A stretch of 64,000 nucleotides of DNA from Methylococcales bacterium (GCA_965224565.1 CBDCZN010000002.1:602570-666569); one strand, 5' to 3'. Positions 24,481 to 51,215 are shown, counted from the first letter of the stretch. Made by a program: numbers and translations. Notes: generated by a model not told the origin, from the sequence alone.

Positions 24481-25671
24481 ATGATACCAATCATTCTTCA
24501 GCAAGCATCGATGTTTATTCTGGCCAAGGGTCAACCAGCATATCATCGGTTTCTTTATAAAGAAATAGACTTTAGCGAACGCCTGATCGGGATAAAAGGC
24601 GCACGCGGTTCTGGAAAAACCACACTAATATTGCAATTTGCAAAAAATAGTGGTCTAAAGTCTTCTCAAATTTTGTATCTCTCTTGCGATCACCCAGCCA
24701 TGGCAGAAGGAGATCTATATAATCTTGCCCAGACCTTTTATCAGGAAGGTGGGAAACTTCTTCTACTAGACGAAATCCATAAATTCAGAAACTTCGCAAC
24801 ACATCTGAAAGCTATTTATGACACCTTTGAATTAAAGGTGATTTTTTCTGGTTCTTCCGCGTTAAGAATAGAACACGAACTCGTTGACCTGTCACGAAGA
24901 GCCATTGTATTTGAGCTGCCTGTTCTGTCTTTTCGGGAATTCCTGGAAATTGAAACTCAAGAAACTTATATAAGTTCTACATTGGAAGATATACTGAACG
25001 ATCATGTCAATATTGCCACAACCATTACACAACGCATTCGTCCTATCGAATACTACAAAAGATACCTTTCTTACGGAGCATACCCATTTTACAAGGAATC
25101 TATTAAAAGTTACACACAAAAACTTACAGAAATCATTAATATAACCATTGATTCCGACCTTTGTGGTATCTACAACATTGAGCCGCTCAAGTTAGATAAG
25201 TTAAAGAAGATTCTCTACATGTTGTGTATAACCAATCCTGTGGAACTAAACATTTCAAAACTAAGCAGTGCAGTAGGAACGTCATGGCCCACGCTATCCA
25301 AATACCTGGAACGCATGGATGCCGGCAGCTTAATTCACATCATACGAGGTGGAACAGGAATGCGATCCGTAAACAAGCCAGACAAACTGTTACTTGATAA
25401 CCCGAATCTATTCTACACACTATGTGCCACGCCGAATATAGGGTCAATTCGAGAAAGCTTCTTTATCTCACAAGTATCCTACTCTCACCCAGTTCACTAC
25501 CATGACAAAGGCGATTTTATCATTGATGACGATATAATATTTGAAATTGGCGGAGCTAGCAAACCCTTCAAACAAATTGCCAACACTAAAAAAGCATTTC
25601 TTGCCGTTGATGATATAGAAACAGGCAATACCACACGTATTCCTCTTTGGTTACTGGGAATGCTCTATTAA
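24481..25671 (+). CDS. AAA_14/DUF4143-type ATPase
   Basis: 396 aa with Walker A GIKGARGSGKTTL and Walker B LLLLDEIHKF, plus a C-terminal region resembling DUF4143. It is one of the few genes on the + strand in this part of the locus. Confidence 0.7.
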   Translation: MIPIILQQASMFILAKGQPAYHRFLYKEIDFSERLIGIKGARGSGKTTLILQFAKNSGLKSSQILYLSCDHPAMAEGDLYNLAQTFYQEGGKLLLLDEIHKFRNFATHLKAIYDTFELKVIFSGSSALRIEHELVDLSRRAIVFELPVLSFREFLEIETQETYISSTLEDILNDHVNIATTITQRIRPIEYYKRYLSYGAYPFYKESIKSYTQKLTEIINITIDSDLCGIYNIEPLKLDKLKKILYMLCITNPVELNISKLSSAVGTSWPTLSKYLERMDAGSLIHIIRGGTGMRSVNKPDKLLLDNPNLFYTLCATPNIGSIRESFFISQVSYSHPVHYHDKGDFIIDDDIIFEIGGASKPFKQIANTKKAFLAVDDIETGNTTRIPLWLLGMLY

Positions 25672-25732: not shown

Positions 25733-26863
25733 TCACCCTAGAGCTTCCAATAAACTCTCAATCACCCAATCCATTTGCCCAAAAGACATGCTAGGAAACA
25801 AAGGCAAAGTCAATACACGTTCAGCGATATCATCAGCAATCGGTGTAGCCTGGAAATGTCTATCTTTATAGGCGCTAAATTGTCGGAAAGAGGGATAATG
25901 AATACTAGTTTGAACTCCCTTGTTTTTCATCGCGTTAATCACTGAAATGCGGTCCACATCCTTATCCAGCAAAACCGGAAGAATATGATAAGCACTAACA
26001 CAATCCTGCAATCCAATAAATGGAACAGTGACTTTTTCACACTCGTTTAACGCAGCAACACAACGCTCCACCAATACTCCACGTTGTAGATTACCCGCTT
26101 GTAACTTTGATAGTTGAACCAGTCCGATAGCCGCACGAATTTCATCCATTCGATAATTTAACCCCGGGCGAACCACATCGTAAGAAATAGCACGACCCTT
26201 ATGTCGATCAAGTGTCAATGTGGTCATTCCATGAGAACGTAAAAATTGTGCCTGTTGACTTAACTCAGCCGACTTAGCCGAAAGCATTCCACCCTCACCA
26301 ATCGATAAATTTTTATTGGTAAAAAAAGAAAAACAGCCAAAATCACCAAACGTGCCGCACGTTTGTCCCTTATAAGAAGCACCAGGAGCATGCGCAACAT
26401 CTTCTATTAATCGAATGCCTCGCTCCTTACACAAGGCAGTAATTGCATCCATCTCGCAAGGATATCCAGCAAAATGCACCACAATAACAGCCTTTGTTTT
26501 CTCAGTAAGACAAGCTTTAATAGAATCTGCAGTTACATTCCAGTTAGCATAAGATCCGCAATCAGCCAAAACCGGGGTCGCACCAACCATCTCTACTGCA
26601 TTAATATCGGCTACAAACGTTAAGGCAGGAATGACCACTTCATCGCTATTTCCAACATCCAAAGCCAACAAAGCCAAATGCAACGCAGCCGTACAGCTAG
26701 ACAAAGCAGTGCAAAATACCTCGCCGCCTAAATTTTCAGCAAACGTTGATTCGAAGGATTGAATACGCTCACCCATCGTCAGCCAGCGACTTTCAATAAC
26801 CGCAGACACAGCATCAGACTCTTGATGATCAAAATTCAATTTAAATAATGGGACTTTCCACAT
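25733..26863 (-). CDS. DegT/DnrJ/EryC1/StrS family sugar aminotransferase
   Basis: 376 aa. It is PLP aminotransferase fold type I-like, with NFDHQESDAVSAVIESRWLTMG at the N-terminus and a FSFFTNKNLSIGEGG motif (PLP Lys). Confidence 0.85.
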   Translation of the reverse strand: MWKVPLFKLNFDHQESDAVSAVIESRWLTMGERIQSFESTFAENLGGEVFCTALSSCTAALHLALLALDVGNSDEVVIPALTFVADINAVEMVGATPVLADCGSYANWNVTADSIKACLTEKTKAVIVVHFAGYPCEMDAITALCKERGIRLIEDVAHAPGASYKGQTCGTFGDFGCFSFFTNKNLSIGEGGMLSAKSAELSQQAQFLRSHGMTTLTLDRHKGRAISYDVVRPGLNYRMDEIRAAIGLVQLSKLQAGNLQRGVLVERCVAALNECEKVTVPFIGLQDCVSAYHILPVLLDKDVDRISVINAMKNKGVQTSIHYPSFRQFSAYKDRHFQATPIADDIAERVLTLPLFPSMSFGQMDWVIESLLEALG

Positions 26864-26985
26864 AAAAATATTCCAGCTATAACGACAGAGGCAAACTACA
26901 GGGTACTATCCATTTTGTCATTGATGAGAAAACAATGTCACTTGATTTCTAAGAGTTTCCGCTGCAAAAAACAACATCTATGAAC

Positions 26986-27204
26986 TTATTCAACAATAAA
27001 ATTAGAATGCTGTTCTAAAAACGAAAGAATTTTATCAACATTGCTGGATGTCGTGGGTAAGTTCACGACATGAGAAGACAAATATTGAGCAACAGGAAAG
27101 TGATCACGCTGCAATCCCCATACTGACAAATCACCCTCAACAGGATGTAACGGAGAAGTAAACCATTCACCCAGGTTAATTCGGTGCTTCTCTGCTAAAG
27201 CCAT
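26986..27204 (-). pseudogene. 3'-terminal remnant (last 72 codons) of a second DegT-type aminotransferase
   Basis: MALAEKHRINLGEWFTSPLHPVEGDLSVWGLQRDHFPVAQYLSSHVVNLPTT... aligns almost residue for residue with the C-terminus of the intact gene at 31840-32994. There is no upstream coding continuation; the remnant abuts the palindromic element at 27211. Confidence 0.8.
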
Positions 27205-27210
27205 AAATTT

Positions 27211-27353
27211 AGGGTGCCTCTAATAATTAGGATTTTTGTTCGAGTTCAAGGCGGATGATTTTCGAGAACCGCAGTGTATATGGAATACATGAGGATCGCA
27301 GAAAACCATCCAACGCTGAAATCGGGCAAAAAGGCAATTATTAGAGGTGCCCT
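27211..27353. repeat. 143-bp imperfect palindromic (MITE/ERIC-like) element
   Basis: 18-bp arms agggtgcctctaataatt (27211-27228) versus aattattagaggtgccct (27336-27353). The 2 mismatches are both G-U compatible on the + strand. The inner arms ggatgattttcg / gcagaaaaccatcc pair. A solo arm-like copy (tattattagaggcccctttagg) occurs near 10187-10210. Confidence 0.65.
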
Positions 27354-27543
27354 TTACTACGTTGATTAACGGCTTTGTATAGATTAAGAGAGAAATTGAA
27401 TGCCTAATTTTGATAAAAACCCCTGGCCAATATTATTTTTGTGTAGAGATGCAATCTGAATTATTTCATTATCCGTAATATTGGTGTGCTTGATGATCAT
27501 TTTGTGAATTTTTTTGGTTTAAGCAAGAATATCAGTTATTACT

Positions 27544-28896
27544 CTATATTGCATGATAGCCACCTGTTTTGGGTGATCCTCTATACTCAATTTTGTGTTC
27601 ATCTTTTAATTGTTTTAGCCAGCGCTCCAGAGTTCTTTGAGGTAGAGAGAGTACCACTTTTAGCTCATTGGTTCTTTTCCCCGGATGGGCATCAATATAT
27701 GCCAAGAGGTCATTTACTCCGCCATTTACTCCGCCATTTACTCCGCCATGCCTCTCTTCATCTTGCTGAAATGTGACCAATACACCATCGCCCATTTCCT
27801 CAATTTTGAAGGTTACGTGTGGATAATCCTGAAGTGCTTTGCGAATACGGATGAAGCCACTGCCGTATTTTTCAATATTTTTTGTCAGGTAAAATGCTTC
27901 TGCAACTAACTTGTTACGCAGGTGTGATTGATAGTGATCCGTTTTGATGTCTTCTATCGTTAAGCCACCAAAAAATCGACCAGGGCTAAAAATCGTGATG
28001 CTGTGATCAAAAATCTTGATTTGAATATCAGATGGGCTAGTGTAATCACGGTGAACCAATGCATTTAAAAGTGCTTCGCGCAGAGCAGGCAGTGGATAAG
28101 CAAAGCGCTCTTGTCGTTGCAATTGTCCAGCGAATTCGAAACTAACACTGATATGCGACAAAATAAATTTCATCGCTTGTTCAACTGCTTCAAACAGAGT
28201 GTCTGTGATTTGACGGTCGTCCAGGATCAAGGTGGGTGTTTTGAAACGCCCAATATGGATGTGGTGTCGCAAAGGGTCTTGTGCGAACAGGAGTAATGCA
28301 GCCCAGCTAGGTTGTTGTTCAGTGATATATTTAAGCTTTTCCAGTGCTAATAATGGTGATGGATCAAGGTTAAACCGTCCCCCGTCGTTCACCTGCGTGA
28401 TAAACGCTTCTATTTTTGTAACAGACAAATCATCGAGTTTCGCATTAATTGCTGGGTAGGTATCCCACGACAATTGCAATGATTGCATGTAAAGATCATT
28501 AATCTCACTCAGACTAAGCTGGTGATTAGAGCTAGCAACGCGTTTGAAATATCGTCCTCGTGTATTGACTGGCTTAACCGGATATTCACCTATGGAGATT
28601 AGCGCTAGAGTTTTTCCATTCAGGTCAACAGCTGAGATGTCAGGAATGATTGATGGACTGCTGGTGGATTTGATTTGACCAAGCCATTCATTCAGCGTCT
28701 CTTTCCCTAAAGTAACACCTTGAACAACACCTTTGTCAGTAACGCCAACCAATACGCAACCACCTTCAGCATTGGCAAAAGCAACCAAAGTTTCAATCGT
28801 GCTGCGATCGAACGAGGTTTTAAACTCAGTAGTTTGTGATTCGCCTTGTGTGATGAGTGTCGTAAGGTTTTGTTTTTTCATTCCATTCCATTTCAC
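27544..28896 (-). CDS. AlbA_2 (Schlafen-like) DNA-binding domain + HATPase_c_4 + C-terminal winged-helix protein (copy 1)
   Basis: 450 aa. N-terminus: LITQGESQTTEFKTSFDRSTIETLVAFANAEGGCVLVGVTDKG (AlbA_2 signature). Middle: ALREALLNALVHRDYTS (HATPase_c_4 signature). C-terminus: PQRTLERWLKQLKDEHKIEYRGSPKTGGY (wHTH-like). Confidence 0.8.
   Translation of the reverse strand: MKWNGMKKQNLTTLITQGESQTTEFKTSFDRSTIETLVAFANAEGGCVLVGVTDKGVVQGVTLGKETLNEWLGQIKSTSSPSIIPDISAVDLNGKTLALISIGEYPVKPVNTRGRYFKRVASSNHQLSLSEINDLYMQSLQLSWDTYPAINAKLDDLSVTKIEAFITQVNDGGRFNLDPSPLLALEKLKYITEQQPSWAALLLFAQDPLRHHIHIGRFKTPTLILDDRQITDTLFEAVEQAMKFILSHISVSFEFAGQLQRQERFAYPLPALREALLNALVHRDYTSPSDIQIKIFDHSITIFSPGRFFGGLTIEDIKTDHYQSHLRNKLVAEAFYLTKNIEKYGSGFIRIRKALQDYPHVTFKIEEMGDGVLVTFQQDEERHGGVNGGVNGGVNDLLAYIDAHPGKRTNELKVVLSLPQRTLERWLKQLKDEHKIEYRGSPKTGGYHAI
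27711..27746. repeat. In-frame 12-bp tandem repeat, 3 copies (catttactccgc), encoding (GGVN)3
   Basis: Read directly from the sequence. It lies in the linker before the C-terminal wHTH of the gene at 27544-28896. Confidence 0.9.
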
Positions 28897-29113
28897 TCAG
28901 CTTTGTTATACACAGCAACTTGACCTTATTATGGAATGGGGATGAAGTAAATTGCGCGTGAGGGCGCAGGATTTTTGTTTGTCTTTAAGGTACGAAAACG
29001 AGGCGCATATCAAACTGCGTGGCTGTATTTGTTCATTGCTCTCGGGAAAAAATTAATGCGCCATCAATACGGTAATGTAACCTCACGTAGTGAATCCAGT
29101 GTAAAAATAATAT

Positions 29114-29653
29114 TCATCTACGCCAGATTGCAGAAAAATCAAGGGGAATGGTACATCCTGATAATTCAAATTCAAGCGTACCCTTTGAAAAATCCCCTTT
29201 TTTTTGATAGGAGCCATTGATCCATATGTAAACTTTAGCGACATTGGTTTCTGGATAAACAAGAATATAATAGGCAACACCTTCTTTTTCGTATAACTGG
29301 AATTTTAATAACTCATCTCGTTTTGCAGTTGATGGCGAAGATACCTCAAATATAACACTCGGAACCATTACGACTTTTTCATCAACCTCATCACAAAGAA
29401 TTAAAACATCCGGCTTAACAATGGTATCGTTAGAAACTAGCCAATCAATCTCCATCAGCGCATAGCAACCAGAACAATGATCATGCTTATCTCTAATAAC
29501 GTTATTTAACTCGGTGAGGATATTGCCTGCAACAATTTGATGGGAAACTGATGGGGCTGGTGACATTGCATAAGGTGTACCTGCAACCAATTCCCAGTCA
29601 CCTTCCCAAATTTTGTAGTCTTCAAGAGTGTAATGCTCATGATAAGCTAACAT
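29114..29653 (-). CDS. Uma2 (DUF820) family PD-(D/E)xK putative endonuclease, long type (copy 1)
   Basis: YTLEDYKIWEGDWELVAGTPYAMSP...KPDVLILC...VIFEVSSPSTAKRDELLKFQLYEKEGVAYY is the Uma2 signature. The start is placed at MLAYHE (aggtg Shine-Dalgarno sequence 5 nt upstream); the track ORF extends to 29674. Confidence 0.8.
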   Translation of the reverse strand: MLAYHEHYTLEDYKIWEGDWELVAGTPYAMSPAPSVSHQIVAGNILTELNNVIRDKHDHCSGCYALMEIDWLVSNDTIVKPDVLILCDEVDEKVVMVPSVIFEVSSPSTAKRDELLKFQLYEKEGVAYYILVYPETNVAKVYIWINGSYQKKGDFSKGTLEFELSGCTIPLDFSAIWRR

Positions 29654-29774
29654 ATGAACACCTAAATACAGCAACTAATAAATGGATTGACAGCATAGCA
29701 TAAGAATGAACAACACTAAACGTTAAGCTATCTTCAACATGAAATGAACCTGAGCTCATCTTTTCAGCAAATCC

Positions 29775-29923
29775 TCGCGTAGAGCAGGCAGTGGATAAGC
29801 AAAGCGTTCTTGTCGTTGCAATTGCCCAGCGAATGCGAAACTGACATTAATATGCGACAAAATAAATTTCATTGCTTGTTCAAGCGCTTCAAACAGGGTG
29901 TCTGTGATTTGACGATCATCCAG
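29775..29923 (-). pseudogene. Internal ~150-bp remnant of a third AlbA_2/HATPase_c_4 gene copy
   Basis: The nucleotide stretch aligns by eye with 28075-28228 and 35400-35555. It encodes LDDRQITDTLFEALEQAMKFILSHINVSFAFAGQLQRQERFAYPLPAL and has no flanking coding continuation. Confidence 0.75.
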
Positions 29924-30028
29924 ACTTCATGCTGCTTATAGAGGCTGTGTACACAAGCTGGGAAAGGATACTTTGGTTTACGCGAGTCGATTTGCGTTAA
30001 TGTGCAGGCTGGTTTAATTGACAAGTTT

Positions 30029-30719
30029 TCAAGTGATAGATTTCAACTTTTTTTCAAAACAAGACCTAATCTCTTCTTTACTAATATTAACTTTAGGCTC
30101 AAGATGTAAAATATTATCATCATCTATATCATCTATATAGATCAAGGCAATGGCGAAAAGCTTGAAATTAACTCCTTCAACAATAGACATAGAATAGTCA
30201 AATATTTCTTTTAGAGAAAATACTTCATTTGCTAAAAAATATAAATCATAATAATCTCTATATTTAGCCCTCAAGAAGAGAGTGTTTACTTTCATAGCAG
30301 CGATTGATTCAATCGATGATAAATTAAAATCCTCTGTTTTTTTTTGGTTTTAAAAAATCCCATTTAGCATTAAAAAAAGTCACTTTAACAGTATTAATCA
30401 ATATATCGATTTGATCATCCGTTTGATTGATTATTTCTTTATTATCAAATCTTTTTAGGTAAGAAATAATTTCTCCTTTGTCAAAAGTGTCATTATAAGT
30501 AAAAAAATACAGATCTTCACTTTTTCTATGTCGTAAATGCAACGCCAAAGCAGAGCTACCCACTAATACATAATCACTTAAAAAAGGTGCCGTATTTATT
30601 AAGGTAAGCAGCAGTCGCTGTGTGTCAAACAACAAGTAATCTAAGTTTTTCACGTCTGGCACTTTTGATTTCCTTAAAGTAGCCGCTTTCAATATCCATA
30701 GAGAACAATACTCTTGCAA
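30029..30719 (-). pseudogene. AbiEii/AbiGii-type nucleotidyltransferase toxin, split into two ORFs (30324-30719 and 30029-30295)
   Basis: The N-terminal ORF has VLVGSSALALHLRHRKSEDLYFF (AbiEii G-x-x-AL...R.S.DLDF-like motif). The C-terminal ORF has LRAKYRDYYDLYFL (R..RDxYDL motif). The frames differ and the break lies next to an A9 run (T9 on the + strand at about 30336-30344). Confidence 0.6.
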
Positions 30720-31074
30720 TAAAAAGGTTTAAGCGAATAAATCTTCTATCATCAACTAATTTTTCTAACCAAACCTGCTTAACCATTTTTAGACCAAAAA
30801 TATCAAGAGCAGTCTTGAGATCACCAAAATCCCCATATTTCAAAATTGTCTCACACAAGGCTTCATCACCCAGCTGTTCACAGGAGAGTTCTTTTGAATA
30901 ACTCCAAAATAACCCCTTATTTTTTAGTACCTCAAACAAGGAAACTTTAATTCTGTGTTGTTTTAAAACTTTTGAAATTAAGACATTAGATACTTTTAAG
31001 TATTCAGCAATATCATTCTGTTTATAACCATCATAGACAGCCTTTACAATATTATAATTTCTCGTTGCAATCAA
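30625..31074 (-). CDS. HTH protein, probable cognate antitoxin/partner of the AbiEii-like gene
   Basis: 149 aa with an N-terminal HTH (QNDIAEYLKVSNVLISKVLK). LFWSYSKELSCEQLGDEALCETILKYGDFGDLKTALDIFG resembles the small domain often encoded just upstream of AbiEii genes. It sits immediately upstream of, and overlaps, the toxin ORF. Confidence 0.5.
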   Translation of the reverse strand: MIATRNYNIVKAVYDGYKQNDIAEYLKVSNVLISKVLKQHRIKVSLFEVLKNKGLFWSYSKELSCEQLGDEALCETILKYGDFGDLKTALDIFGLKMVKQVWLEKLVDDRRFIRLNLFIARVLFSMDIESGYFKEIKSARREKLRLLVV

Positions 31075-31735
31075 AAAGAGAATAATCGCTCAAATGTTTA
31101 CATTTAACTCTAGCAATACCATTGCTTTTTTTATTAAATTTAGCCTGATGTAACTCAGACAACTGGTTTTTATCATTTTCATTAACTATATTTTCAGATA
31201 ATCCTAATAAACCCGTTGTATTATCAAGTCTAATAATAATTCCAAGATTTAAACAGTGCATTTTAATCTTGGGCGCGATTGGTTTGGTTAAGAAAAAAGA
31301 GGACGCATATGCAAAATCACCAATTTTTCGAGTAATCCCAGCCTTAATCGGATTACACTCAATATATTTAACCAAGCTAAAGAGGTATGACTCATCATAA
31401 ATATACCAAGATTGAAACCTTCCCTGCCAAAGGTGGCCTACTCGATTATATTTTTTATTAAAATAGATAGCATATTTTGAGTTTATTTGTCTCATTATTA
31501 GAGACAGGTTAGTCTTTGTTATTTCAATAAGCAAATGATAATGATTGTCCATCAGGCAAAATGAATGCATGATGAATTTATAAAGGTCCGCAGTCTCATC
31601 AATAATATCTATGAATTTGTCCCGATCATCATCGCTGAGAAAAACGGTACGGTGCTCAACTCCTCTATTGATGATGTGATAAAACCCTATTTCCTCTATT
31701 CTAACTCGTCTTGCCATATGGATAGTAACAGTCAT
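31052..31735 (-). CDS. IS200-like Y1 (HUH) transposase / REP-associated tyrosine transposase-like protein
   Basis: 227 aa. Motifs: FYHIINRGVEHRTVF, HUH motif MDNHYHLLIE, GHLWQGRFQS and the catalytic-Tyr region VKYIECNPIKAG. No flanking IS ends were identified. Confidence 0.75.
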   Translation of the reverse strand: MTVTIHMARRVRIEEIGFYHIINRGVEHRTVFLSDDDRDKFIDIIDETADLYKFIMHSFCLMDNHYHLLIEITKTNLSLIMRQINSKYAIYFNKKYNRVGHLWQGRFQSWYIYDESYLFSLVKYIECNPIKAGITRKIGDFAYASSFFLTKPIAPKIKMHCLNLGIIIRLDNTTGLLGLSENIVNENDKNQLSELHQAKFNKKSNGIARVKCKHLSDYSLFDCNEKL

Positions 31736-31839
31736 GATGACTCAATAGAGTACTAGTTTATATCAAGAAAAGTTAAAAATAAATACCTGGCACCATTTGT
31801 TGAAAGTCTTTCATGACAGAGATAACAGCATTCATAAAC

Positions 31840-32994
31840 TCAGTCAACAATAAAATCAGAATACCGCTCTAAAAAGGAAAGAACCCGATCAATATTGTCT
31901 GGAGTCGTAGGTAAATTCACAACATGGGAAGATAAATATTGAGCAACAGGAAAGTTCTCACGCTGAAATTTCCATGCTGATAAATCACCTTCAACAGGAT
32001 GTAACGGAGAAGTAAACCATTCCCCCAGATTAATACGGTGCTTTTCCGCTAATGCCATGAATTCACTACGCTGATTAACTAACAAGGGATATTTCAAAAA
32101 TGAATGATTTACAAACCATTTCTCAGCAACATGATTTTTGCCAAGTTGGATAAGAAAATTGGTATATATTTCAGCGTTCTGTTTGCGCTTTACAAGATCT
32201 GAAGAAAGATTTGGTAGGGTCCTTAAACCTTCTTTCGCTTGTATATTACTAAATCCTTTAAAATAGTCATCAGGCATGTTAATAGAAATAATTTCCTCAC
32301 CAGAAGATGAACCTACAACGAGATTATTTCTACTTAACAAACGAAAAAATTTTACTAGTGGCCAATAAGTAATTTCATTAATTAAAAAACGCTTAATAAA
32401 ATACAACACCTTCAAATTCAATAAATCTTTAGTCGAAGGAGCGATTAGTTCAGAATTCAAGGACAATAAATGATCTGTTATTGTTTTATTATTAGCAATA
32501 GAAAAACCACCTAGCCCTGTTGAAAAAGGTTTATTCCACTGCGTCGAATAAATGGCGGCATCACAAGTCAATCCGTTAGCAATCCCATCATATGTTCCCC
32601 CGAAGCCTTGTGTGCAATCCTCAATGGTATAAAGATGATATTTCTTGGCTAATGCATTAAGCACTTGAAGATCAGTAGATAAACCATAAGTATTTTGACA
32701 AATAATAACCTTTGATTTATCTGTAATAGCATTCTCTACTTGAGCAACATCCATGTTATAGGTATCAGCAGCCACATCTACATAGACAGGTTTCGCGCCT
32801 AAATAAATAATCGCATTTGGGACAACCACACAAGTGTATGCAGGAAGAATAATCTCATCACCTTCTTGTACATCCATTGCCTTTAATAAGGCATAGAGGC
32901 CAACACGTGCTTTCCAATAAAACGTGATTGTCTTCTTATTGACTGATAATAGTTGAGCGATTGAAAATAGGAACGAATTTTTAGTGTTAGACAT
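31840..32994 (-). CDS. DegT/DnrJ/EryC1/StrS family aminotransferase (second, intact)
   Basis: 384 aa. PLP aminotransferase-like (ILPAYTCVVVPNAI, YSTQWNKPFSTGLGG). Its C-terminus matches the remnant at 26986-27204. Confidence 0.8.
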   Translation of the reverse strand: MSNTKNSFLFSIAQLLSVNKKTITFYWKARVGLYALLKAMDVQEGDEIILPAYTCVVVPNAIIYLGAKPVYVDVAADTYNMDVAQVENAITDKSKVIICQNTYGLSTDLQVLNALAKKYHLYTIEDCTQGFGGTYDGIANGLTCDAAIYSTQWNKPFSTGLGGFSIANNKTITDHLLSLNSELIAPSTKDLLNLKVLYFIKRFLINEITYWPLVKFFRLLSRNNLVVGSSSGEEIISINMPDDYFKGFSNIQAKEGLRTLPNLSSDLVKRKQNAEIYTNFLIQLGKNHVAEKWFVNHSFLKYPLLVNQRSEFMALAEKHRINLGEWFTSPLHPVEGDLSAWKFQRENFPVAQYLSSHVVNLPTTPDNIDRVLSFLERYSDFIVD

Positions 32995-33005
32995 ATTGTA
33001 GAGAC

Positions 33006-33587
33006 TTAAACCCAGTGTTGTTCATCAGCAAGCGACATGATATCAATATCAGATGCTTCATCTGCATAAGACACGATATAATAATTTTTTACATCAAGGA
33101 TTTTTTTGAGTTCGACAGACTTAACAGCGCCACGACAAACATTACCATGTATTTCACCTGTATATATATCATTATAACAAACCAAATTAGTGGCTATTAC
33201 CTCTACAGATTCACCTATATTATTCGACTGTAGCCAGGTTTTTATAACAACATCAAAGTTTGCTGAAACAATAATTACTCTGTCATTCTCACTTCTTGAG
33301 TTAAGAAAATCATGATACACACTTGAATTATGATCTACTTTTTCTTGGAGGAATTTGAGTAGGATCTTATTGATCTGATGAACACTCTTTCCCTTGAAAA
33401 AATATTTAGAAAATCTTCTTTTTAACTCTTCATTAGAAAAAAAAGTCAACTTGAAACCTAGGTAGTAATAAAAAAACTTCCCAAAAGAAATAAATCGCCC
33501 ATTTGTAGCAAAAAAAAGTGCCATGGGAAGCAAGGTATCCCTGTTGGTCAAGGTACCATCAAAATCAAATACAGTCGCTTTATTCAT
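33006..33587 (-). CDS. HAD-superfamily (IB-like) hydrolase/phosphatase
   Basis: 193 aa with HAD motif I VFDFDGTLT at the N-terminus and a C-terminal acidic motif YADEASDIDIM. Confidence 0.7.
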   Translation of the reverse strand: MNKATVFDFDGTLTNRDTLLPMALFFATNGRFISFGKFFYYYLGFKLTFFSNEELKRRFSKYFFKGKSVHQINKILLKFLQEKVDHNSSVYHDFLNSRSENDRVIIVSANFDVVIKTWLQSNNIGESVEVIATNLVCYNDIYTGEIHGNVCRGAVKSVELKKILDVKNYYIVSYADEASDIDIMSLADEQHWV

Positions 33588-34780
33588 ATAGCGTCTATAT
33601 CTAACAAAGCTTCATCGCTGGGATTTACACTTTGAGTACTTACAAATTTATTAAAGTAATATAAACCTTCAAATAAAAATGGAACTGGGTCATCAAGAAA
33701 GAAATCATCATATCCATCAACGCTGCCGCTTAAGAAACCTTTAATCGGAGTTATTAACTGCTTGGTATGTCCCATCTCACTCATCAATGACAAGACATCA
33801 CCTAATAACCATTTAACTTTTACGCCAAGCTTATAATCCATTACAGGATCTATATCACCATCAGTAGCCATTTGATATAGCAGATAGGGAAAATCTACAC
33901 CAGACTGTATTGCAAGTGACAACGATCCCCAAAAACGTGGATTAACATCTATAACCATTGCGGTATTAGATTTTTTATCATATTTAAATTCAACCATAGC
34001 AACACCATGAAACTTTACCCTCGAAAGGAGTTCTATCGCATATTCTTCAAGTAGAGGTTCTCTAACACTGACCCTTACAGTACTTGTTCCACCAGTGTAT
34101 GTTTTTTCACGTAAGCGTTTATGTGTAAAAACAGCTCTAACTTCACCATGATTCATCAATACAGATACACCATATCCATTTCCTTTCACATATTGTTGAA
34201 CAAAAGGATACTGATCTTTGGTTTCGCATAGTCTTGAATAAATCGCTTCAGCGCCATCCCTGTTATGTATATAGTGAACACCCTTGGCGCTATTAGTCTG
34301 GCTATCTTTGATTACAACAGGATATGCCATGCTGGAAAATATATCGGGCAAGTTATCTAACGAAGTAATTCTATAAATCTCTGGAGTTGGTATCCCGTAC
34401 TTTTGACACACATCAAATAAGCATTCTTTCTTGTGCAATTGTTCTAACACATCAAAATCAGCTATAGGAACTATAAATCCAGACTGTTCTAATTGTTCAC
34501 GGTATTTAGCAGCAATAAATATCTCTTCATGTACAGGAAGGTATACCCTGGAATGATCATCTTTAACCTGTTGTGTAAGCGAATTTACAAAAGAAGCTGG
34601 GTTTTTATAAAATGATGGATATTGAAAAAAATCATCGCCATAACGAGAAAATCGAGCCATTGCTAGCTTGTTAGCATCCCCAACGATTACACGTACTCCT
34701 TTCGCAGCTAATGATCTTAATACATTGTATCCGACCCGATTCCAACAATAAGTGACTAATGCATCAATATTTTTATTCAT
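33584..34780 (-). CDS. ATP-grasp domain protein (carboxylate-amine ligase-like)
   Basis: 398 aa with a pre-ATP-grasp Rossmann N-terminus (VRVIVGDAN). The central region (YPVVIKDSQTNSAKGVHYI...VQQYV...AMVEFKYD...VIDVNPRFWGS) is typical of ATP-grasp ligases. 4-nt overlap with the HAD gene. Confidence 0.75.
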   Translation of the reverse strand: MNKNIDALVTYCWNRVGYNVLRSLAAKGVRVIVGDANKLAMARFSRYGDDFFQYPSFYKNPASFVNSLTQQVKDDHSRVYLPVHEEIFIAAKYREQLEQSGFIVPIADFDVLEQLHKKECLFDVCQKYGIPTPEIYRITSLDNLPDIFSSMAYPVVIKDSQTNSAKGVHYIHNRDGAEAIYSRLCETKDQYPFVQQYVKGNGYGVSVLMNHGEVRAVFTHKRLREKTYTGGTSTVRVSVREPLLEEYAIELLSRVKFHGVAMVEFKYDKKSNTAMVIDVNPRFWGSLSLAIQSGVDFPYLLYQMATDGDIDPVMDYKLGVKVKWLLGDVLSLMSEMGHTKQLITPIKGFLSGSVDGYDDFFLDDPVPFLFEGLYYFNKFVSTQSVNPSDEALLDIDAI

Positions 34781-34827
34781 TATAATAAATTAGCTAAAAG
34801 GCATAATAGTCTTTAGGAAGCTAAACT

Positions 34828-36207
34828 TTATTCCTCTTCGCAGGTAAGATTCTTATTCAATATTGCATGATAACCACCTGTTTTGGGTGATCCTCTAAAC
34901 TCGATTTTGTTTTCATCTTTTAATTGTTTCAGCCTGCGCTCCAGAGTTCTCTGGGGTACAGCGAATACCATTTTTAGCTCACTGGTTCTTTTCCCAGGAT
35001 GAGTGCCAATATAAGCCAAGAGGGAATTTACTCCGTCATTTACTCCGTCATTTACTCCGTCATTTACTCCGCCATGCCTCTCTTCATCTTGCTGAAATGT
35101 GACCAATACACCATCGCCCATTTCCTCAATTTTGAAGGTTACGTGTGGATAATCCTGAAGTACTTTGCGAATACGGATGAAGCCACTGCCGTATTTTTCA
35201 ATATTTTTTGTCAGGTAAAATGCTTCTGCAACTAACTTGTTACGCAGGTGTGATTGATAGTGATCCGTTTTGATGTCTTCTATCGTTAAGCCACCATAAA
35301 ATCGACCAGGGCTAAAAATCGTGATGCTGTGATCAAAAATTTTTATTTGAATATCAGATGGGCTAGTGTAATCACGGTGAACCAATGCATTTAAAAGTGC
35401 TTCGCGCAGAGCAGGCAGTGGATAAGCAAAGCGTTCTTGGCGTTGCAATTGTCCAGCGAATTCGAAACTAACACTGATATGCGACAAAATAAATTTCATC
35501 GTTTGTTCAACTGCTTCAAACAGAGTGTCTGTGATTTGACGGTCATCCAGAATCAAGGTGGGTGTTTTGAAACGCCCAATATGGATGTGGTGTCGCAAAG
35601 GTTCTTGTGCGAACAGGAGTAATGCAGCCCAGCTAGGTTGTTGTTCAGTGATATATTTAAGCTTTTCCAGTGCTAATAATGGTGATGGATCGAGGTTAAA
35701 CCGTCCCCCGTCGTTCACCTGCGTGATAAATACTTCTATTTTTGTAACAGACAAATCATCGAGTTTCGCATTAATTGCTGGGTAGGTATCCCACGACAAT
35801 TGCAATGATTGCATGTAAAGATCATTAATCTCACCTAAGCTAAGCTGGTGATTGGAGCTGGCAATGCGTTTGAAATATCGTCCTCGAGTATTGACTGGCT
35901 TAACCGGATATTCACCTATGGAGAATAGTGCTAGAGTTTTTCCATTTATATCAACAGCTGAAATGTCAGGAATGATTGATGGACTGGTAGTGGATTTAAC
36001 TTGACCAAGCCATTCATTCAGTGTCTCTTTCCCTAATGTGATGCCTTGAACAACACCTTTGTCAGTAACGCCAACCAATACGCGACCGCCTTCAGCATTG
36101 GCAAAAGCAACCAAAGTTTCAATCGTGTTGCGATCGAACGAGGTTTTAAACTCAGTACTTTGTGATTCGCCTTGTGTGATTAGTGTCGCAAGGTTTTGTT
36201 CTTTCAT
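34828..36207 (-). CDS. AlbA_2 (Schlafen-like) + HATPase_c_4 + wHTH protein (copy 2)
   Basis: Paralog of 27544-28896 with very high amino-acid identity across the whole length. The track ORF extends to 36279; I prefer the Met of MKEQNLATLITQGES by alignment with copy 1. Confidence 0.8.
   Translation of the reverse strand: MKEQNLATLITQGESQSTEFKTSFDRNTIETLVAFANAEGGRVLVGVTDKGVVQGITLGKETLNEWLGQVKSTTSPSIIPDISAVDINGKTLALFSIGEYPVKPVNTRGRYFKRIASSNHQLSLGEINDLYMQSLQLSWDTYPAINAKLDDLSVTKIEVFITQVNDGGRFNLDPSPLLALEKLKYITEQQPSWAALLLFAQEPLRHHIHIGRFKTPTLILDDRQITDTLFEAVEQTMKFILSHISVSFEFAGQLQRQERFAYPLPALREALLNALVHRDYTSPSDIQIKIFDHSITIFSPGRFYGGLTIEDIKTDHYQSHLRNKLVAEAFYLTKNIEKYGSGFIRIRKVLQDYPHVTFKIEEMGDGVLVTFQQDEERHGGVNDGVNDGVNDGVNSLLAYIGTHPGKRTSELKMVFAVPQRTLERRLKQLKDENKIEFRGSPKTGGYHAILNKNLTCEEE
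35025..35072. repeat. In-frame 12-bp tandem repeat, 4 copies (a/catttactccgt/c), encoding GGVN(DGVN)3
   Basis: Read directly from the sequence. It sits at the same position as the 3-copy array in copy 1. Confidence 0.9.
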
Positions 36208-36428
36208 CCCACCTTGCTCAACTTTGTTATATGCAGCAACTTGACCATTATTAATGGAATGGGGATAGCTGTTTGTCATGATTGCGCAGAACTATTGTTT
36301 ATCTTTAAGGCGCTAAAACAGGCGCATAGCTATCTACGTGACTGTTTTAGTGTATTGCTCTCGGCAAAAAATCAACACGCTATCAATTCCGCAGCCGCGC
36401 GAAGTATAAGCCTGCCTCAAAATAATCA

Positions 36429-36968
36429 TCAGCTACGCCAGATAGCAGAAAAATCAAGGGGAATGGTCCATCCTGATAATTCAAACTCAAGCTTACCCTT
36501 AGAAAAATCCCCTTTTTTTTGGTAGGATCCATTGACCCATATGTAAACTTTAGCAACATTTGTTTCTGGATAAACAAGGATATAATAGGCAACACTTTCT
36601 TTTTCGTATAACTGGAATTTTAATAACTCATCTCGTTTTGCAGTTGATGGAGAAGACACCTCAAATATAACACTCGGAACCATTACGACTTTTTCATCAA
36701 CCTCATCACAAAGAATTAAAACATCCGGCTTAACAATGGTATCGTTAGAAACCACCCAATCAATCTCCATCAGCGCATGGCAACCAGCACAATGATCATG
36801 CTTATCTCTAATAATATTATTTAACTGGGTGAGGATATTGCCTGCAACAATTTGATGGGAGACCGATGGAGTTGGAGACATTGCATAAGGCGTACCTGCA
36901 ACCAACTCCCAATCTCCTTCCCAAATCTTGTAGTCTGCAAGAGTGTAATGCTCATGATAAGCTAGCAT
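36429..36968 (-). CDS. Uma2 (DUF820) family putative endonuclease, long type (copy 2)
   Basis: Near-identical paralog of 29114-29653 (MLAYHEHYTLADYKIWEGDWELVAGTPYAMSP...). The track ORF extends to 37034. Confidence 0.8.
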   Translation of the reverse strand: MLAYHEHYTLADYKIWEGDWELVAGTPYAMSPTPSVSHQIVAGNILTQLNNIIRDKHDHCAGCHALMEIDWVVSNDTIVKPDVLILCDEVDEKVVMVPSVIFEVSSPSTAKRDELLKFQLYEKESVAYYILVYPETNVAKVYIWVNGSYQKKGDFSKGKLEFELSGWTIPLDFSAIWRS

Positions 36969-37244
36969 ATGAACACCTAAATATGGCAACAAAGAAATAA
37001 CGGGTTGACAGCATAGCATAAGAATGATCAACACAAAACGTCAGAGACCTAAATCCGCAAATGATTGTGAAATCGGGTGCTGATTCAGCACAATGTCTAT
37101 TATGTGGACCGTTTGTGACCTGATTGATAACCGTGAAGAACATAAAGATAATGAAGGAAAGAGAATTTAGTGATTTGTCGAATAAAGAGTGAGGAATTAA
37201 TAATTAAGTGACTATTTTTGATTAAAACATGTATTCGCTTCTAT

Positions 37245-37946
37245 TTAATATTGTTCTTCTTTTTTTCTAATTAAGTATATACGATTAAGACGAACAATGA
37301 CAAAAGCAATAACTGAAAAGATTGTCGGCCATATTCCTCTTATTGAAATATTCTTTTTTAGAAGAGATAATCTTGCGATCATCGCCAGATATTTAAGATC
37401 AAATTCTTCATGTTCGATGCTTGAGATAAATTGATCAACTAAGGCAGGTGGGAAATATTGTTCGAAGGGTGTACGGTAAGGACTGCTTAATTTTTGTTTC
37501 AACCCTAAAACCTTGTCCTGTCTTAATCTACCCATATGAAGTAGTTCCTTTAAATAGGATAAGGCTAATTCATTTTCCGGCTTTAAAACTTTAATGCTAT
37601 TGTGGTACTTATAGTCATGAATTATAACATAATGATTCATATAGACTAAACCAGCATAATTAAACGTCGACCATATGTCGATATCTATAGAATCTGCTTT
37701 TGAAATTAAGCGTAGTTTTAAAACATCAAGTCTTATGTCTTTTATGTTTAAAGTATATGAATATTCTTCACCTATACTTATAATAATAGCGATAAAATCA
37801 TCTAAGTCATTTTTTAAAACGCCAAAGTCAATGTCGTTAGAATAGGCGTTAGGGAGGTTTTCGAACCCTCTTAACACAACATAGCAAATTTTACTTAGCT
37901 CAAGTTTTAGAAACAAATAAGGTAATATCGACTCTGAATGACTCAT
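37245..37946 (-). CDS. Hypothetical protein, possibly an uncharacterised nucleotidyltransferase-fold protein with a C-terminal TM helix
   Basis: 233 aa. VVLRGFENLPNAYSNDIDFGVL resembles the KG...R..DIDLL motif of uncharacterised NTases found in glycan loci. The C-terminus (WPTIFSVIAFVIV) is hydrophobic. Confidence 0.4.
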   Translation of the reverse strand: MSHSESILPYLFLKLELSKICYVVLRGFENLPNAYSNDIDFGVLKNDLDDFIAIIISIGEEYSYTLNIKDIRLDVLKLRLISKADSIDIDIWSTFNYAGLVYMNHYVIIHDYKYHNSIKVLKPENELALSYLKELLHMGRLRQDKVLGLKQKLSSPYRTPFEQYFPPALVDQFISSIEHEEFDLKYLAMIARLSLLKKNISIRGIWPTIFSVIAFVIVRLNRIYLIRKKEEQY

Positions 37947-48147: not shown

Positions 48148-48714
48148 TTATACAGAAAATGCGTAGGTTATGATTCATTTCACATTTTTTATAGTCTCTG
48201 AATTCATGGTTTATAGTACAATGGGATAAAAAACAGATAAAATATATGAATTCAATGTCTGTGTAAGAATATGCTTATAATTTGGTTAGAAATCATGCAA
48301 CTAAATATATCATTGCTATTTTATACAATTCTATTTTAAGGGTTCTGATGAGTTTCAGCAATATTTTGTGGTATAACATTTGTGATATTTCCTGTTGGAA
48401 AGTACCTTGCCAGTAATATTTGGTCTTAAGGGAGTGTAGAAAAGGGGTCTGAGCCCAATGCCGCTTCCAGTCGCTTAAAACATCAATTAATCAGTAAGTT
48501 ATGTGCATTTCACGCTTGGTTACAAATTGACACCATAATAATAAACAATAGCTTACCAAGATCGTTTATTAAAAATTGCACTTTAAATTTAATATACAAT
48601 TGTTCAAGTCATTGTTTTTAAGGTGACACTAACATTATAAAACAGGGAAACATTAGTCTTAAATAATTATAATTCAATTATTTAACACGTTACTCGGTAT
48701 TGGGGTCTGAGCCT

Positions 48715-49263
48715 TTAAAATTTTCTAAATCGCTTAAACACATTATCAAAATCTATTTTTGCCTTGCACGTAGTATCTTCGAATTCGTATGTTTCCTTAA
48801 AAAAGTCTCCCTGTTTGGAGTATTTATTGTTTTCTAGTCGATATAGTTTTGCCTTGCAATCATTTGGATACACGATTATGTAGTATGGAACTTTCTCTTT
48901 TTCGTATATTTCAAATTTGAAAATTTCATCTCGCTTGGCTGAAGATTTACTGACAACTTCTACAATAATCTCAGGTGTTTTTGTGATGTATTGATCATTT
49001 GGTTCATCGCATATTAAAACTACGTCAGGTTTCAAAATAGTATCATTTCTTACTTTCCAATCTTCCTCACCTAACACCAAGCATCTTTCACAATCACCTA
49101 TTGAATTCATCAATTAATTTAATATTTTACCTGCTATCGCTTGATGCTTGATCACTGGAGATGGGGTCATTGACACAGGAATTCATCCTATTAATTCCCA
49201 TTTTCCTTCCCAGTGAAGATAATTATCGTAGGTATAATATTCTATTGCTTTTTCAGTTGTCAT
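48715..49263 (-). pseudogene. Uma2 family endonuclease pseudogene (paralog of 54827-55378) with two in-frame stops
   Basis: Translation from the ATG at 49263: MTTEKAIEYYTYDNYLHWEGKWELIG-TGA-IPVSMTPSPVIKHQAIAGKILN-TAA-LMNSIG. The intact paralog has EG and E at those positions. The track ORF covers only the last 132 codons. Confidence 0.8.
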
Positions 49264-49522
49264 TACTTACTTTTCTTCCCTGCCTCCAGCTTGTTAATCT
49301 CGCTGAATAGCCGTTCAGGCTCTTGGTATCGATGAATCACCATCGGTAATACTCTTCCCTGCGACCGATCAATATCGTGAATTCACTAGCTGAGCTCATC
49401 CTGATAATAGTTATTCTCAATAACTTATGCTCGAGAATTAGGGGGCATTTTTTACATTCAATAGAATTTTGATAAAAATTAACGAATCCGACCATTTTAA
49501 AGCAAAGAGTATACAATTGCTA

Positions 49523-50927: not shown

Positions 50928-50985
50928 ACCAAGATATAGATTGACAGTAATATGCTGATTTTGCTCTTGGTTCTGGTTTACTGGT

Positions 50986-51113: not shown

Positions 51114-51215
51114 CAGTATTGTCCTATTGGGCGTCCCCGTTTTCGGCTTGACATAATTTAGCATGAGGCATATAGCGAGTTATTATGACTCACTTTTTGA
51201 TGCTAGATTAACACA

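Follow-up and report, generated by a model that had tools for sequence, protein, structure and literature searches.

A paralogous two-gene repeat in the exopolysaccharide locus of an uncultured methanotroph: a probably old, maintained duplication with a patch of gene conversion

Introduction

Few regions of bacterial genomes vary as much as the loci for surface polysaccharides, on which susceptibility to phages and grazers depends. Two long direct repeats that bracket three sugar-modification genes in such a locus raise the question of whether the repeats are a young duplication that switches a surface glycan on and off or a trace of older remodelling. The window analyzed here is a 64,000-nucleotide stretch of a metagenome-assembled genome from a Methylococcales bacterium (GCA_965224565.1, CBDCZN010000002.1:602570-666569), and all positions are counted from its first letter. 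The host is an uncultured gammaproteobacterial methanotroph. The first-pass annotation of the window placed the repeats at 27546-29725 and 34860-37040 and interpreted them as a recent segmental duplication and a ready substrate for recombination.

Results

The repeats are located in an exopolysaccharide locus of the Wza/Wzc/Wzx/Wzy type, the glycan genes of which have a G+C content of 0.30-0.36 in the window. Loci for Wzx/Wzy-dependent O-antigen, capsule, and exopolysaccharide are mosaics with gene remnants, insertion sequences (IS), and cassettes of low G+C content. The methanotroph locus shares with them the low-G+C glycan genes, remnants of sugar genes at junctions, transposases, MITE-like elements, and a gene order that differs in a relative. 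It is distinguished from them by toxin–antitoxin modules within the operon and by an unusually high number of Uma2 genes, eight, which are co-oriented; IS elements are also present. Rfam and tRNA scans of the whole window gave no match, and a scan for promoters and terminators gave signal no higher than the shuffled background. A gene encoding an AAA_14 protein (24481-25671) matches the PADLOC candidate PDC-S01, which has not been validated as a system.

The repeated unit and its genes are as follows:

27536-29723, minus strand: direct repeat copy A, containing Uma2 A, a spacer, and AlbA_2 A (self-BLASTN; boundaries taken from alignments)
34850-37041, minus strand: direct repeat copy B, containing Uma2 B, a spacer, and AlbA_2 B (self-BLASTN; boundaries taken from alignments)
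27544-28896, minus strand: AlbA_2 A, intact, with AlbA_2 (Schlafen-like) and HATPase_c_4 domains (PF04326, 1e-20; PF13749, 8e-18)
34828-36279, minus strand: AlbA_2 B, intact, 483 residues, 93% amino acid identity to A (Pfam)
29114-29674, minus strand: Uma2 A, intact, PD-(D/E)XK-type "Uma2 family endonuclease" (PF05685, 2e-22; PADLOC PDC-S03, 2e-26)
36429-37034, minus strand: Uma2 B, intact, 179 residues from the ATG at 36968 (Pfam, PADLOC)

The copies are each 2.2 kb long, lie on the same strand, and are 7.3 kb apart. Gapped self-BLASTN, the check that the first-pass annotation had proposed, aligns them in direct orientation with 91.4% identity over 2,206 columns (158 mismatches, 11 gap openings) and places their boundaries within about 10 nt of those read by eye, so that the repeats are real. 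Alignment by MAFFT gives 92.4% identity across 2,174 ungapped columns. The boundaries closely follow the Uma2 and AlbA_2 genes, which are the only genes that Pfam detects in the repeated unit, and 188 nt to the left of copy A have no counterpart. The unit is not a transposon- or IS-bounded mobile module: the module ends have no terminal inverted repeats (local alignment scores of 10-12), neither copy has a target-site duplication, and there is no internal transposase. Because the source is a metagenome-assembled genome, and short-read contigs break at the repeats, an artefact of assembly has to be considered. However, about 9% of sites differ between the copies, each of which has unique flanks, and a 42-kb contig of another assembly (GCA_044240345.1, which may share sequencing data) spans both copies at 99.995% identity, with one mismatch in 21 kb. 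It is extremely improbable that the duplication was created by the assembly.

The AlbA_2 and HATPase_c_4 domains score 74.8 bits (cut-off 25.3) and 64.7 bits (cut-off 26), above the Pfam gathering thresholds. AlbA_2 A has 450 residues from a GTG start, and 445 in the public record. In PADLOC the AlbA_2 protein has partial, domain-level matches only, to pAgo-associated models. Bacterial AlbA_2 (Schlafen-like) proteins are associated with defence islands, for example Avs9 (PMC12680541), which the protein resembles in its N-terminal AlbA_2 domain and in a neighbourhood rich in defence- and toxin-type genes; however, the approximately 450 residues comprise AlbA_2, HATPase_c_4, and a C-terminal wHTH-like tail instead of a STAND NTPase. 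No AlbA_2 homolog closer than 76% was found elsewhere in genome, metagenome, and protein collections, a ceiling that may partly reflect incomplete sampling, because the clustered protein collection lacks AlbA_2 B itself. No contigs of the same species turned up among the genomes and metagenomes searched, only homologs at 75% or less.

Uma2 A has 179 residues from the ATG at 29653. The two Uma2 copies score 79.9 and 78.8 bits against PF05685 (cut-off 27), and their relatives in the PDB are 9y1l and 6okh. The PADLOC match, PDC-S03, is a candidate rather than a validated defence system, and no functional study of Uma2 or AlbA_2/HATPase_c_4 proteins of this type was found in the literature. AlbA_2 and Uma2 do not form a conserved two-gene system, since Uma2 is a neighbour in 0 of 47 other loci with AlbA_2 homologs. 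Another locus (L067) also has AbiE next to AlbA_2, but the AbiE genes have no sequence similarity, so that the likeness is at family level only.

As the first-pass annotation had described, the repeats bracket a segment of the glycan locus, which contains the following genes together with a fragment of a third AlbA_2 copy:

33584-34780, minus strand: ATP-grasp carboxylate-amine ligase-like enzyme (Pfam and further searches)
33006-33587, minus strand: HAD-IB phosphatase, the start of which overlaps the ATP-grasp stop by 4 nt (Pfam, NCBIfam)
31840-32994, minus strand: DegT-family sugar aminotransferase DegT2, intact (Pfam, 9e-49; PDB sugar aminotransferases, 4e-29)
31052-31735, minus strand: Y1 (HUH) transposase, nearest to REP-associated tyrosine transposases (Y1_Tnp, 7e-16)
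30625-31074, minus strand: 149-residue ORF upstream of the AbiEii-like gene (weak PADLOC DNA-binding match)
30029-30719, minus strand: degraded AbiEii-like gene in two ORFs, 30324-30719 and 30029-30295 (PF08843, weak PADLOC match)

The three glycan genes look functional, in agreement with the first reading, with intact ORFs and with family assignments confirmed by Pfam. DegT2 has the lysine-containing motif SxxxxKxxxxGxGG, as read by eye, and the ATP-grasp–HAD pair is conserved in other polysaccharide loci. A Campylobacter-type glucuronamide (serinol or ethanolamine amide) cassette, considered as a candidate identity of the trio, is not claimed, because searches of the PDB returned generic sugar aminotransferases and distant ATP-grasp enzymes only. 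The Y1 transposase scores 73.9 bits against the RAYT model NF047646 of NCBIfam (cut-off 80), and the only palindromic element found lies 3.7 kb from it. An AbiE-like module is present; however, it is degraded. The N- and C-terminal pieces of AbiEii are in separate ORFs and score about 17 bits each against the PF08843 cut-off of 22.5, and the module is not an intact AbiE type IV toxin–antitoxin system. The 149-residue ORF has no match in Pfam or NCBIfam and is possibly the antitoxin partner of AbiEii.

The divergence of the copies contradicts the proposed recent origin. Between A and B, AlbA_2 has a dS of 0.14 and Uma2 one of 0.22, with a range of 0.16-0.32 outside a homogenized core; the non-coding spacer between the two genes differs at 25% of its sites (53/208). 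The Uma2 identity between A and B (93.7%) is barely above that between B and the homolog from another organism, L065 (93.1%; remaining pair, 91.9%). The informative sites, 9 against 2 and 3, make A and B sisters relative to that homolog. With dN/dS of 0.24 for AlbA_2 and 0.14 for Uma2, both full copies are intact and under purifying selection. The identity is also mosaic: it reaches 98.3% in 27736-28505, falls to about 70-75% in the spacer, and is about 89% elsewhere. The conserved stretch and its partner (35062-35831), within AlbA_2, contain 13 mismatches in 770 nt and no indels, and form a statistically significant gene-conversion tract: the maximal chi-square of 59.8 was matched in 0 of 200 permutations, and differences at third codon positions amount to 9/258 inside against 28/190 outside (Fisher p = 3.6e-5). 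Therefore, copies A and B have recombined at least once. A and B are best explained as a passenger module of two genes that was duplicated long ago, has been kept by selection, and carries one patch of gene conversion.

Three further elements lie between and beside the repeats:

29775-29924, minus strand: fragment of a third AlbA_2 copy (residues ~244-301), 91% identical to both A and B
26970-27209, minus strand: 3′ remnant of a DegT2-like gene, 84% identical to 31824-32063 over 241 columns
27211-27353, no strand assigned: palindromic (MITE/REPIN-like) element of 143 nt, which abuts the break of the DegT2 remnant

Both remnants had been noticed in the first reading, the second as a duplicated aminotransferase 3′ end next to a palindrome, and both hold. 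The AlbA_2 fragment aligns to 28076-28225 and 35402-35551 in self-BLASTN, with 1, 2, and 11 differences at codon positions one, two, and three, each of 50. The DegT2 remnant retains a 72-codon ORF (26986-27204) without a stop or frameshift, and its differences at the three positions, in the same order, are 9/73, 5/74, and 22/74. Because the differences fall mainly at third positions, the remnants probably derive from older functional copies that were truncated later and not from eroding fresh duplicates. Of the earlier picture of repeated duplication and decay, segmental duplication and the remnants thus stand, whereas decay is supported neither for the full copies nor for the remnants. The parts of the structure do not share one level of divergence at third positions (14%, 22%, and 30%); the DegT2 remnant pair is about twice as diverged there as A and B (30% versus 14%), and its divergence is clearly beyond theirs. 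The palindromic element has 18-nt terminal inverted repeats and a predicted DNA hairpin of -35.9 kcal/mol (z = -8.1), and is single-copy in the window. Integration into the 3′ end of the DegT gene with an att-like duplication was rejected, since neither an integrase nor a shared core was found, and the two 240-nt sequences match at only 84% of positions and differ in the pattern typical of coding DNA.

Homologous recombination requires a minimal processing segment of approximately 25-30 nt. The perfect-identity tracts between A and B are 134, 102, 101, 95, 89, and 89 nt long. As direct copies with long perfect tracts and past exchange, the repeats are a substrate for homologous recombination, as the first-pass annotation had proposed. 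Because the converted tract contains no indel, crossing over there would remove or multiply the ATP-grasp/HAD/DegT cassette, and the hybrid AlbA_2 gene that results would stay in frame. The further proposal, that such crossovers occur at an appreciable frequency and make the surface glycan heterogeneous within the population, draws on this geometry, on the proof from gene conversion that the copies have interacted, and on the functional appearance of the cassette genes. However, the search for a deletion or amplification junction that it called for found none in GCA_044240345.1, GCA_036479825.1, SRR10729170, and SRR17063066, a search of very low power, and all five public contig sets of the population have the same arrangement or end at the repeats. 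The arrangement has also persisted long enough for the converted tract itself to gain 13 differences and for the rest of the repeat to diverge by about 11%, which suggests that crossovers are infrequent or selected against. Sequence divergence of about 9%, the overall value here, is generally known to suppress recombination controlled by RecA and MutS. Furthermore, deletion by crossover would be irreversible, and would therefore not constitute a switch. Nothing shows that the repeats act as a surface-sugar switch, and a working one is very unlikely. Exchange within the conserved core could still delete or tandemly amplify the cassette, but as a structural mutation of rare occurrence.

Discussion

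The A and B copies are, in the reading that we consider rather likely, paralogs of a passenger module of Uma2 and AlbA_2/HATPase_c_4 genes that was anciently duplicated within a long-lived mosaic exopolysaccharide locus. The module would have been duplicated in this lineage long ago, with a neutral divergence of about 0.2-0.3 substitutions per site, and purifying selection has since kept both copies intact, while gene conversion later homogenized the 770-bp stretch inside AlbA_2. The two remnants, of AlbA_2 and of the DegT gene, probably come from copies that once worked and lost part of their sequence later. Their truncations lie beside mobile DNA, namely the RAYT-like transposase, the hairpin-forming palindrome, and what is left of the AbiE module. 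Repeated rounds of segmental duplication, recombination, and deletion may have assembled the locus, in a region where selfish and defence-type genes gather, and a RecA-dependent crossover in the conserved core could still remove or multiply the sugar genes. More than one order of events is compatible with the data. A simple tandem duplication of Uma2-AlbA_2-ATP-grasp-HAD-DegT2 would account for copy A being colinear with the DegT2 remnant; however, the greater third-position divergence of the remnant pair and the 188 nt without a counterpart strain this scheme, and a single tandem duplication with an internal deletion is at best a partial account.

The recombination of homeologous cassettes is common in O-antigen and capsule loci, and the second copy might have been imported in this way from a diverged sister strain. 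The divergence of A and B would then pre-date their co-residence, and the remnants would mark old recombination junctions. The substitution spectra of both remnants, which are those of functional genes diverged elsewhere, the uneven third-position divergence, and the tight fit of the repeat boundaries to the two genes speak for import, as does the presence of the same Uma2 at other positions of polysaccharide loci in the relatives L056 (SRR27899019) and L065 (ERZ25083849). By contrast, the sole close homolog of Uma2 from outside places A and B as sisters, copy A is colinear with the DegT2 remnant as expected from local duplication, and no donor-like sequence was found in any collection searched. 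Import is considered unlikely, but it is the most probable of the alternatives.

The abundance of Uma2 genes suggests another origin, in which Uma2 is intrinsically mobile. As a nuclease cassette of its own, similar to homing elements, it would spread into the intergenic sites of operons with the same orientation, and here it would have dragged its AlbA_2 neighbour along. The eight Uma2 loci lie within 31 kb, all co-oriented with the operon and seven of them intact, and their proteins are mostly just 25-49% identical to one another. Self-BLASTN identifies a second young pair, 48721-49310 and 54836-55425. In L065, Uma2 stands alone, and the homology begins only about 70-90 nt upstream of the gene and stops about 15 nt past its end. 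The order in L056, known from a single 2.9-kb short-read contig, is orf233, ATP-grasp, HAD, and Uma2; module B is absent between orf233 and ATP-grasp, and homology to the window resumes at 34838. These two loci and a third relative, L066, hold the same Uma2 clade inside polysaccharide clusters at differing positions. Lineage-specific expansions of Uma2 (PF05685/DUF820/COG4636) have been described in cyanobacteria, Thermus, and Thermosynechococcus, with many diverged paralogs per genome and copy numbers that vary between close relatives (PMC1274311, PMC9403480). The proteins studied here likewise clear the Pfam threshold; however, their host is a gammaproteobacterial methanotroph, and the copies, counted in the window alone, are concentrated in one polysaccharide locus. 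Against mobility, terminal inverted repeats and target-site duplications were not found, the duplicated units include AlbA_2 or, in the second young pair, extra flanking DNA, as in ordinary segmental duplication, and the literature search found no biochemical or genetic support. It is very doubtful that the copies arose in this manner. A broader proposition is that Uma2 genes, each with a short leader, are self-propagating, homing-like cassettes roughly 0.6 kb in length that favour intergenic sites of co-oriented polysaccharide operons, and that the 2.2-kb repeat is one product, in which an AlbA_2 gene was carried along; it is only slightly less improbable.

Ancient local duplication, the favoured reading, has partial parallels in known systems. 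In the cap locus of Haemophilus influenzae type b, flanking IS1016 copies mediate amplification or deletion of the capsule genes. The methanotroph locus is similar in that long direct repeats flank polysaccharide genes and RecA-dependent unequal crossover can alter copy number. However, its repeats are 9%-diverged paralogous gene pairs under selection instead of IS elements, they bracket only three decoration genes, and a copy-number variant was not observed. The tufA and tufB genes of Salmonella evolve in concert by gene conversion, and A and B are likewise two paralogs on one chromosome with an internal homogenized tract and diverged flanks; here, however, only a 770-bp patch is homogenized, and the genes are accessory passengers and not essential translation factors.

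Overall, the mosaicism is of the kind usual for such loci, with a single side pattern that is modestly new. The window provides a dated, internally calibrated example of the remodelling of a polysaccharide locus in an uncultured methanotroph, comprising duplication, long co-existence of paralogs, patchy gene conversion, and truncation beside mobile DNA. It indicates that repeats which look poised for recombination can last for long periods without working as a switch. Uma2 genes are concentrated in polysaccharide clusters both in this window and on three related contigs, which offers a testable clue to a large family; if Uma2 genes do propagate themselves, their scattered homologies would drive the rearrangement of surface-glycan loci.

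Organization of the repeat region

The dominant internal match of the window, detected by gapped self-BLASTN, is a pair of direct repeats at 27536-29723 (copy A) and 34850-37041 (copy B). Their alignment has 2,206 columns, 91.4% identity, 158 mismatches, and 11 gap openings. Each copy is a two-gene module of Uma2, a spacer, and an AlbA_2/HATPase_c_4 gene. The repeats are located in a Wza/Wzc/Wzx/Wzy-type exopolysaccharide locus (NCBIfam), which spans the window from roughly 63.8 kb to 19.5 kb, where the initiating phosphoglycosyl transferase lies. Every gene of the region is on the minus strand.

Genes of the repeat region, in gene direction
37245-37946, minus, orf233
36429-37034, minus, Uma2 B
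34828-36279, minus, AlbA_2/HATPase_c_4 B
33584-34780, minus, ATP-grasp
33006-33587, minus, HAD-IB phosphatase
31840-32994, minus, DegT2, a DegT-family aminotransferase
31052-31735, minus, Y1 transposase, nearest to RAYTs (73.9 bits against a cut-off of 80)
After the Y1 transposase, minus, 149-aa ORF (orf149)
After orf149, minus, AbiEii-like gene broken into two pieces, both sub-threshold
29775-29924, minus, AlbA_2 fragment
29114-29674, minus, Uma2 A
27544-28896, minus, AlbA_2 A, followed by a hairpin element and a DegT2 3' remnant
25733-26863, minus, PseC-like DegT

The first-pass annotation had read from the sequence a long direct repeat, a third-copy remnant, a duplicated aminotransferase 3' end, and a palindromic element, and all of these are present. 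The third-copy remnant is the AlbA_2 fragment, 150 nt long and 91% identical to an internal part of A and B; the DegT2 3' remnant (26970-27209) matches 31824-32063 at 84% identity; and the palindrome is a 143-nt hairpin at 27211-27353. A single 42-kb contig of GCA_044240345.1 covers both copies with 1 mismatch in 21 kb, and therefore the repeat structure, which is real and well bounded, is not an assembly artefact. Neither terminal inverted repeats nor target-site duplications occur at the module ends of either copy. The G+C content of the repeats, 0.40-0.43, is like that of the backbone; that of the glycan genes is low, 0.30-0.36.

The bracketed trio of ATP-grasp, HAD, and DegT2 looks functional: all three reading frames are intact, ATP-grasp overlaps HAD, and a Lys-containing PLP motif is kept in DegT2, as judged by eye. 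A likeness of the trio to Campylobacter-type amide-decoration cassettes found no support in PDB searches. Uma2 is a PD-(D/E)XK-type family with lineage-specific expansions, namely 15 copies in Thermus versus 3 in Deinococcus (PMC1274311) and 4 versus 16 copies among Thermosynechococcus strains (PMC9403480); in PADLOC it appears only as candidate PDC-S03. In bacteria, AlbA_2 is a Schlafen-like nuclease domain that shows a statistical link to defence islands (PMC12680541). The AlbA_2/HATPase_c_4 architecture has PADLOC matches at the domain level only and one distant PDB relative, 3lmm. A 12-nt indel between AlbA_2 A and B (27708 / 35023) falls in the linker that precedes the C-terminal domain and reflects different copy numbers of a short tandem peptide repeat: three GGVN in A, and GGVN with three DGVN in B. 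An AAA_14 ATPase (24481-25671, plus strand; PADLOC candidate PDC-S01), positioned on the opposite strand between a Polysacc_synt_2 dehydratase and the PseC-like DegT, is a further non-glycan passenger within the operon.

Age of the duplication and gene conversion

The duplication is old and kept by selection, and its initial description as recent is not borne out. Both Uma2 and AlbA_2 are intact in the two copies. Nei-Gojobori estimates are dS 0.138 and dN/dS 0.24 for AlbA_2, and dS 0.223 and dN/dS 0.14 for Uma2. In the non-coding intergenic spacer 53 of 208 aligned sites differ, in addition to indels. Uma2 A and Uma2 B are 93.7% identical, and B and A share 93.1% and 91.9% identity, respectively, with the homolog of a different organism (L065). 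With the L066 homolog as outgroup, nine informative sites join A and B, and the alternatives have two and three. Thus A and B are sisters, yet their duplication is almost as old as the split from the L065 gene.

The identity of the copies is strongly uneven. A maximal chi-square scan selects 27736-28505, a stretch of 770 nt with 13 mismatches and 0 indels (98.3% identity, compared with 89.1% outside it), and the statistic is reached in 0 of 200 permutations. The simplest reading is that gene conversion produced this stretch within an older duplication, since the contrast holds at synonymous positions: AlbA_2 third codon positions differ at 9 of 258 sites inside the tract and 28 of 190 outside (Fisher p = 3.6e-5). 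The tract is direct evidence of past non-reciprocal recombination between A and B. Perfectly identical runs of 134, 102, 101, and 95 nt occur within and around it, and a crossover in this region would generate an in-frame hybrid AlbA_2.

It had been proposed that such recombination switches a glycan modification on and off in the population. The substrate is present, past exchange is demonstrated, and a switch is plausible in principle; however, there is no evidence for one at the population level. Look-ups with flanking and internal proteins identified GCA_044240345.1, which has the full structure, GCA_036479825.1, SRR10729170, and SRR17063066, all 99.995-100% identical to the window. None of their contigs contains a deletion or amplification junction, at a contig level that does not detect minority variants. 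The short-read contigs stop at or just before sequence common to both copies: 27963 falls in the 134-nt perfect tract, 35055 shortly precedes a 101-nt one, 36831 coincides with a perfect tract of 33 nt, and 27166 and 31993 are inside the DegT2 repeat. The arrangement has lasted for the time that 13 substitutions took even within the converted tract; crossover products are therefore probably rare or selected against.

Origin of the remnants

The DegT2 remnant retains an uninterrupted 72-codon frame and differs from intact DegT2 at 9, 5, and 22 sites in codon positions 1, 2, and 3; for the AlbA_2 fragment against copy A the counts are 1, 2, and 11. This third-position bias indicates that both remnants diverged while they were functional genes and were truncated later, so they are neither slowly eroding fresh duplicates nor simple decay products. 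One tandem duplication of the segment Uma2-AlbA_2-ATPgrasp-HAD-DegT2, followed by internal deletion, would leave copy A colinear with the DegT2 remnant. As a full history it is rejected, because the ages are unequal, with third-position divergence of 30% for the DegT2 remnant, 22% for the AlbA_2 fragment, and 14% for the unconverted A/B flanks, and because 188 nt left of copy A have no counterpart. The suggestion of repeated rounds of duplication and decay is right in spirit, but the rounds span a long time and passed through functional intermediates.

The near-perfect hairpin (-35.9 kcal/mol, z = -8.1), bounded by 18-nt terminal inverted repeats, occurs once in the window and starts one base past the break of the 240-nt DegT2 remnant, which is its truncation point. 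The distance to the RAYT-like Y1 transposase is 3.7 kb, and no REP-like copies flank the transposase gene.

Related loci

Most closely related to the cassette is a 2.9-kb contig (L056; Logan SRR27899019, 1-2888), with 88% ATP-grasp protein identity and about 85% nucleotide identity over the cassette. Its order is orf233, ATP-grasp, HAD, Uma2; within its 2.9 kb there is neither a Uma2-AlbA_2 module between orf233 and ATP-grasp nor a DegT2 behind HAD. Homology to the window picks up at 34838, 12 nt off the boundary of repeat B, and the contig shows the same locus in another arrangement. The ATP-grasp-HAD pair is also kept in other polysaccharide loci, which have neither AlbA_2 nor Uma2. In L065, Uma2 stands alone beside a flippase-like gene, and window homology is limited to Uma2 with some 70-90 nt on its upstream side and some 15 nt on its downstream side; the 74% identical Uma2 of L066 follows GT2, phosphomannomutase, and WecA-like transferase genes.

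No AlbA_2 homolog elsewhere exceeds 76% identity, in a sampling that is incomplete, since the clustered protein collection lacks AlbA_2 B itself. Uma2 is not a neighbour in any of 47 AlbA_2-homolog loci; therefore, the AlbA_2-Uma2 pairing is lineage-specific and not a conserved system. On long contigs, the closest homolog is that of L067 (5547-8766; 76% aa), which comes after a split AbiEii and a partner ORF in a polysaccharide locus rich in HepT/MNT and RelE modules. This gene-family order is that of orf149-AbiEii-AlbA_2 fragment in the window, with no sequence similarity between the AbiE genes.

AlbA_2 homologs directly adjoin DegT aminotransferases in four other contigs (L010 8870-11359, L011 8865-11323, L025 326-2783, L029 8458-13479), with gaps of 6-22 nt in Arcobacter. 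In L025 AlbA_2 is flanked by 150-nt direct repeats (90%), and in L029 its 5' region is duplicated (210 nt, 97%). In L036, from an unrelated metagenomic organism, and also in L035 and L037, AlbA_2 (L036 4643-6013, 69% aa) is bracketed by direct repeats carrying DegT (3081-4463 versus 7567-8929, 1.4 kb, 88%), with three more remnants between them. This is the mirror image of the window, where AlbA_2 repeats bracket the DegT2 cassette.

Distribution of Uma2 in the polysaccharide locus

Eight Uma2-family (PF05685) loci lie in the 29-60 kb part of the window, every one on the minus strand, which is the operon strand; the first 29 kb has none. Seven of the eight are intact, and most are only 25-49% identical in amino acid sequence. 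Six of them, together with two transposases, are in an 11.6-kb selfish-gene patch (48150-59800) between Wzc and glycosyltransferases.

Features of the selfish-gene patch
48730-49242, minus, Uma2 pseudogene with two in-frame stops
49624-50880, plus, rve integrase
51470-51871, plus, PIN toxin
51977-52528, minus, Uma2
52887-54461, minus, IS66 transposase
54827-55378, minus, Uma2
55552-55947, DUF3368
56428-56850, aspartyl-protease-like ORF
56916-57350 / 57340-57723, HepT/MNT toxin-antitoxin pair
57764-58270, minus, Uma2
58352-58828, minus, Uma2
59072-59542, minus, Uma2

Another collinear group of direct repeats (48721-49310 / 54836-55425, 91%; 50985-51113 / 56429-56557, 96%), with an additional repeat at 56326-56435 versus 57432-57541 (79%), points to a further segmental duplication involving Uma2; the integrase and the IS66 transposase lie between its copies. 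At the very start of the window, a weak internal repeat (95-809 versus 392-1121; 742 columns, 64% identity, shifted by about 300 nt) is suggestive of repetitive coding sequence. Colonization of polysaccharide operons by Uma2 is the most original lead and is speculative.

Polysaccharide-synthesis genes accompany AlbA_2 homologs in 9 of 26 loci of at least 6 kb. Together with the second repeat pair and L035-L037, this makes the A/B structure one instance of a recurrent phenomenon, in which selfish and defence-type genes gather in polysaccharide loci under repeated local duplication and recombination. The structure is a fresh example of an already known kind of locus mosaicism.
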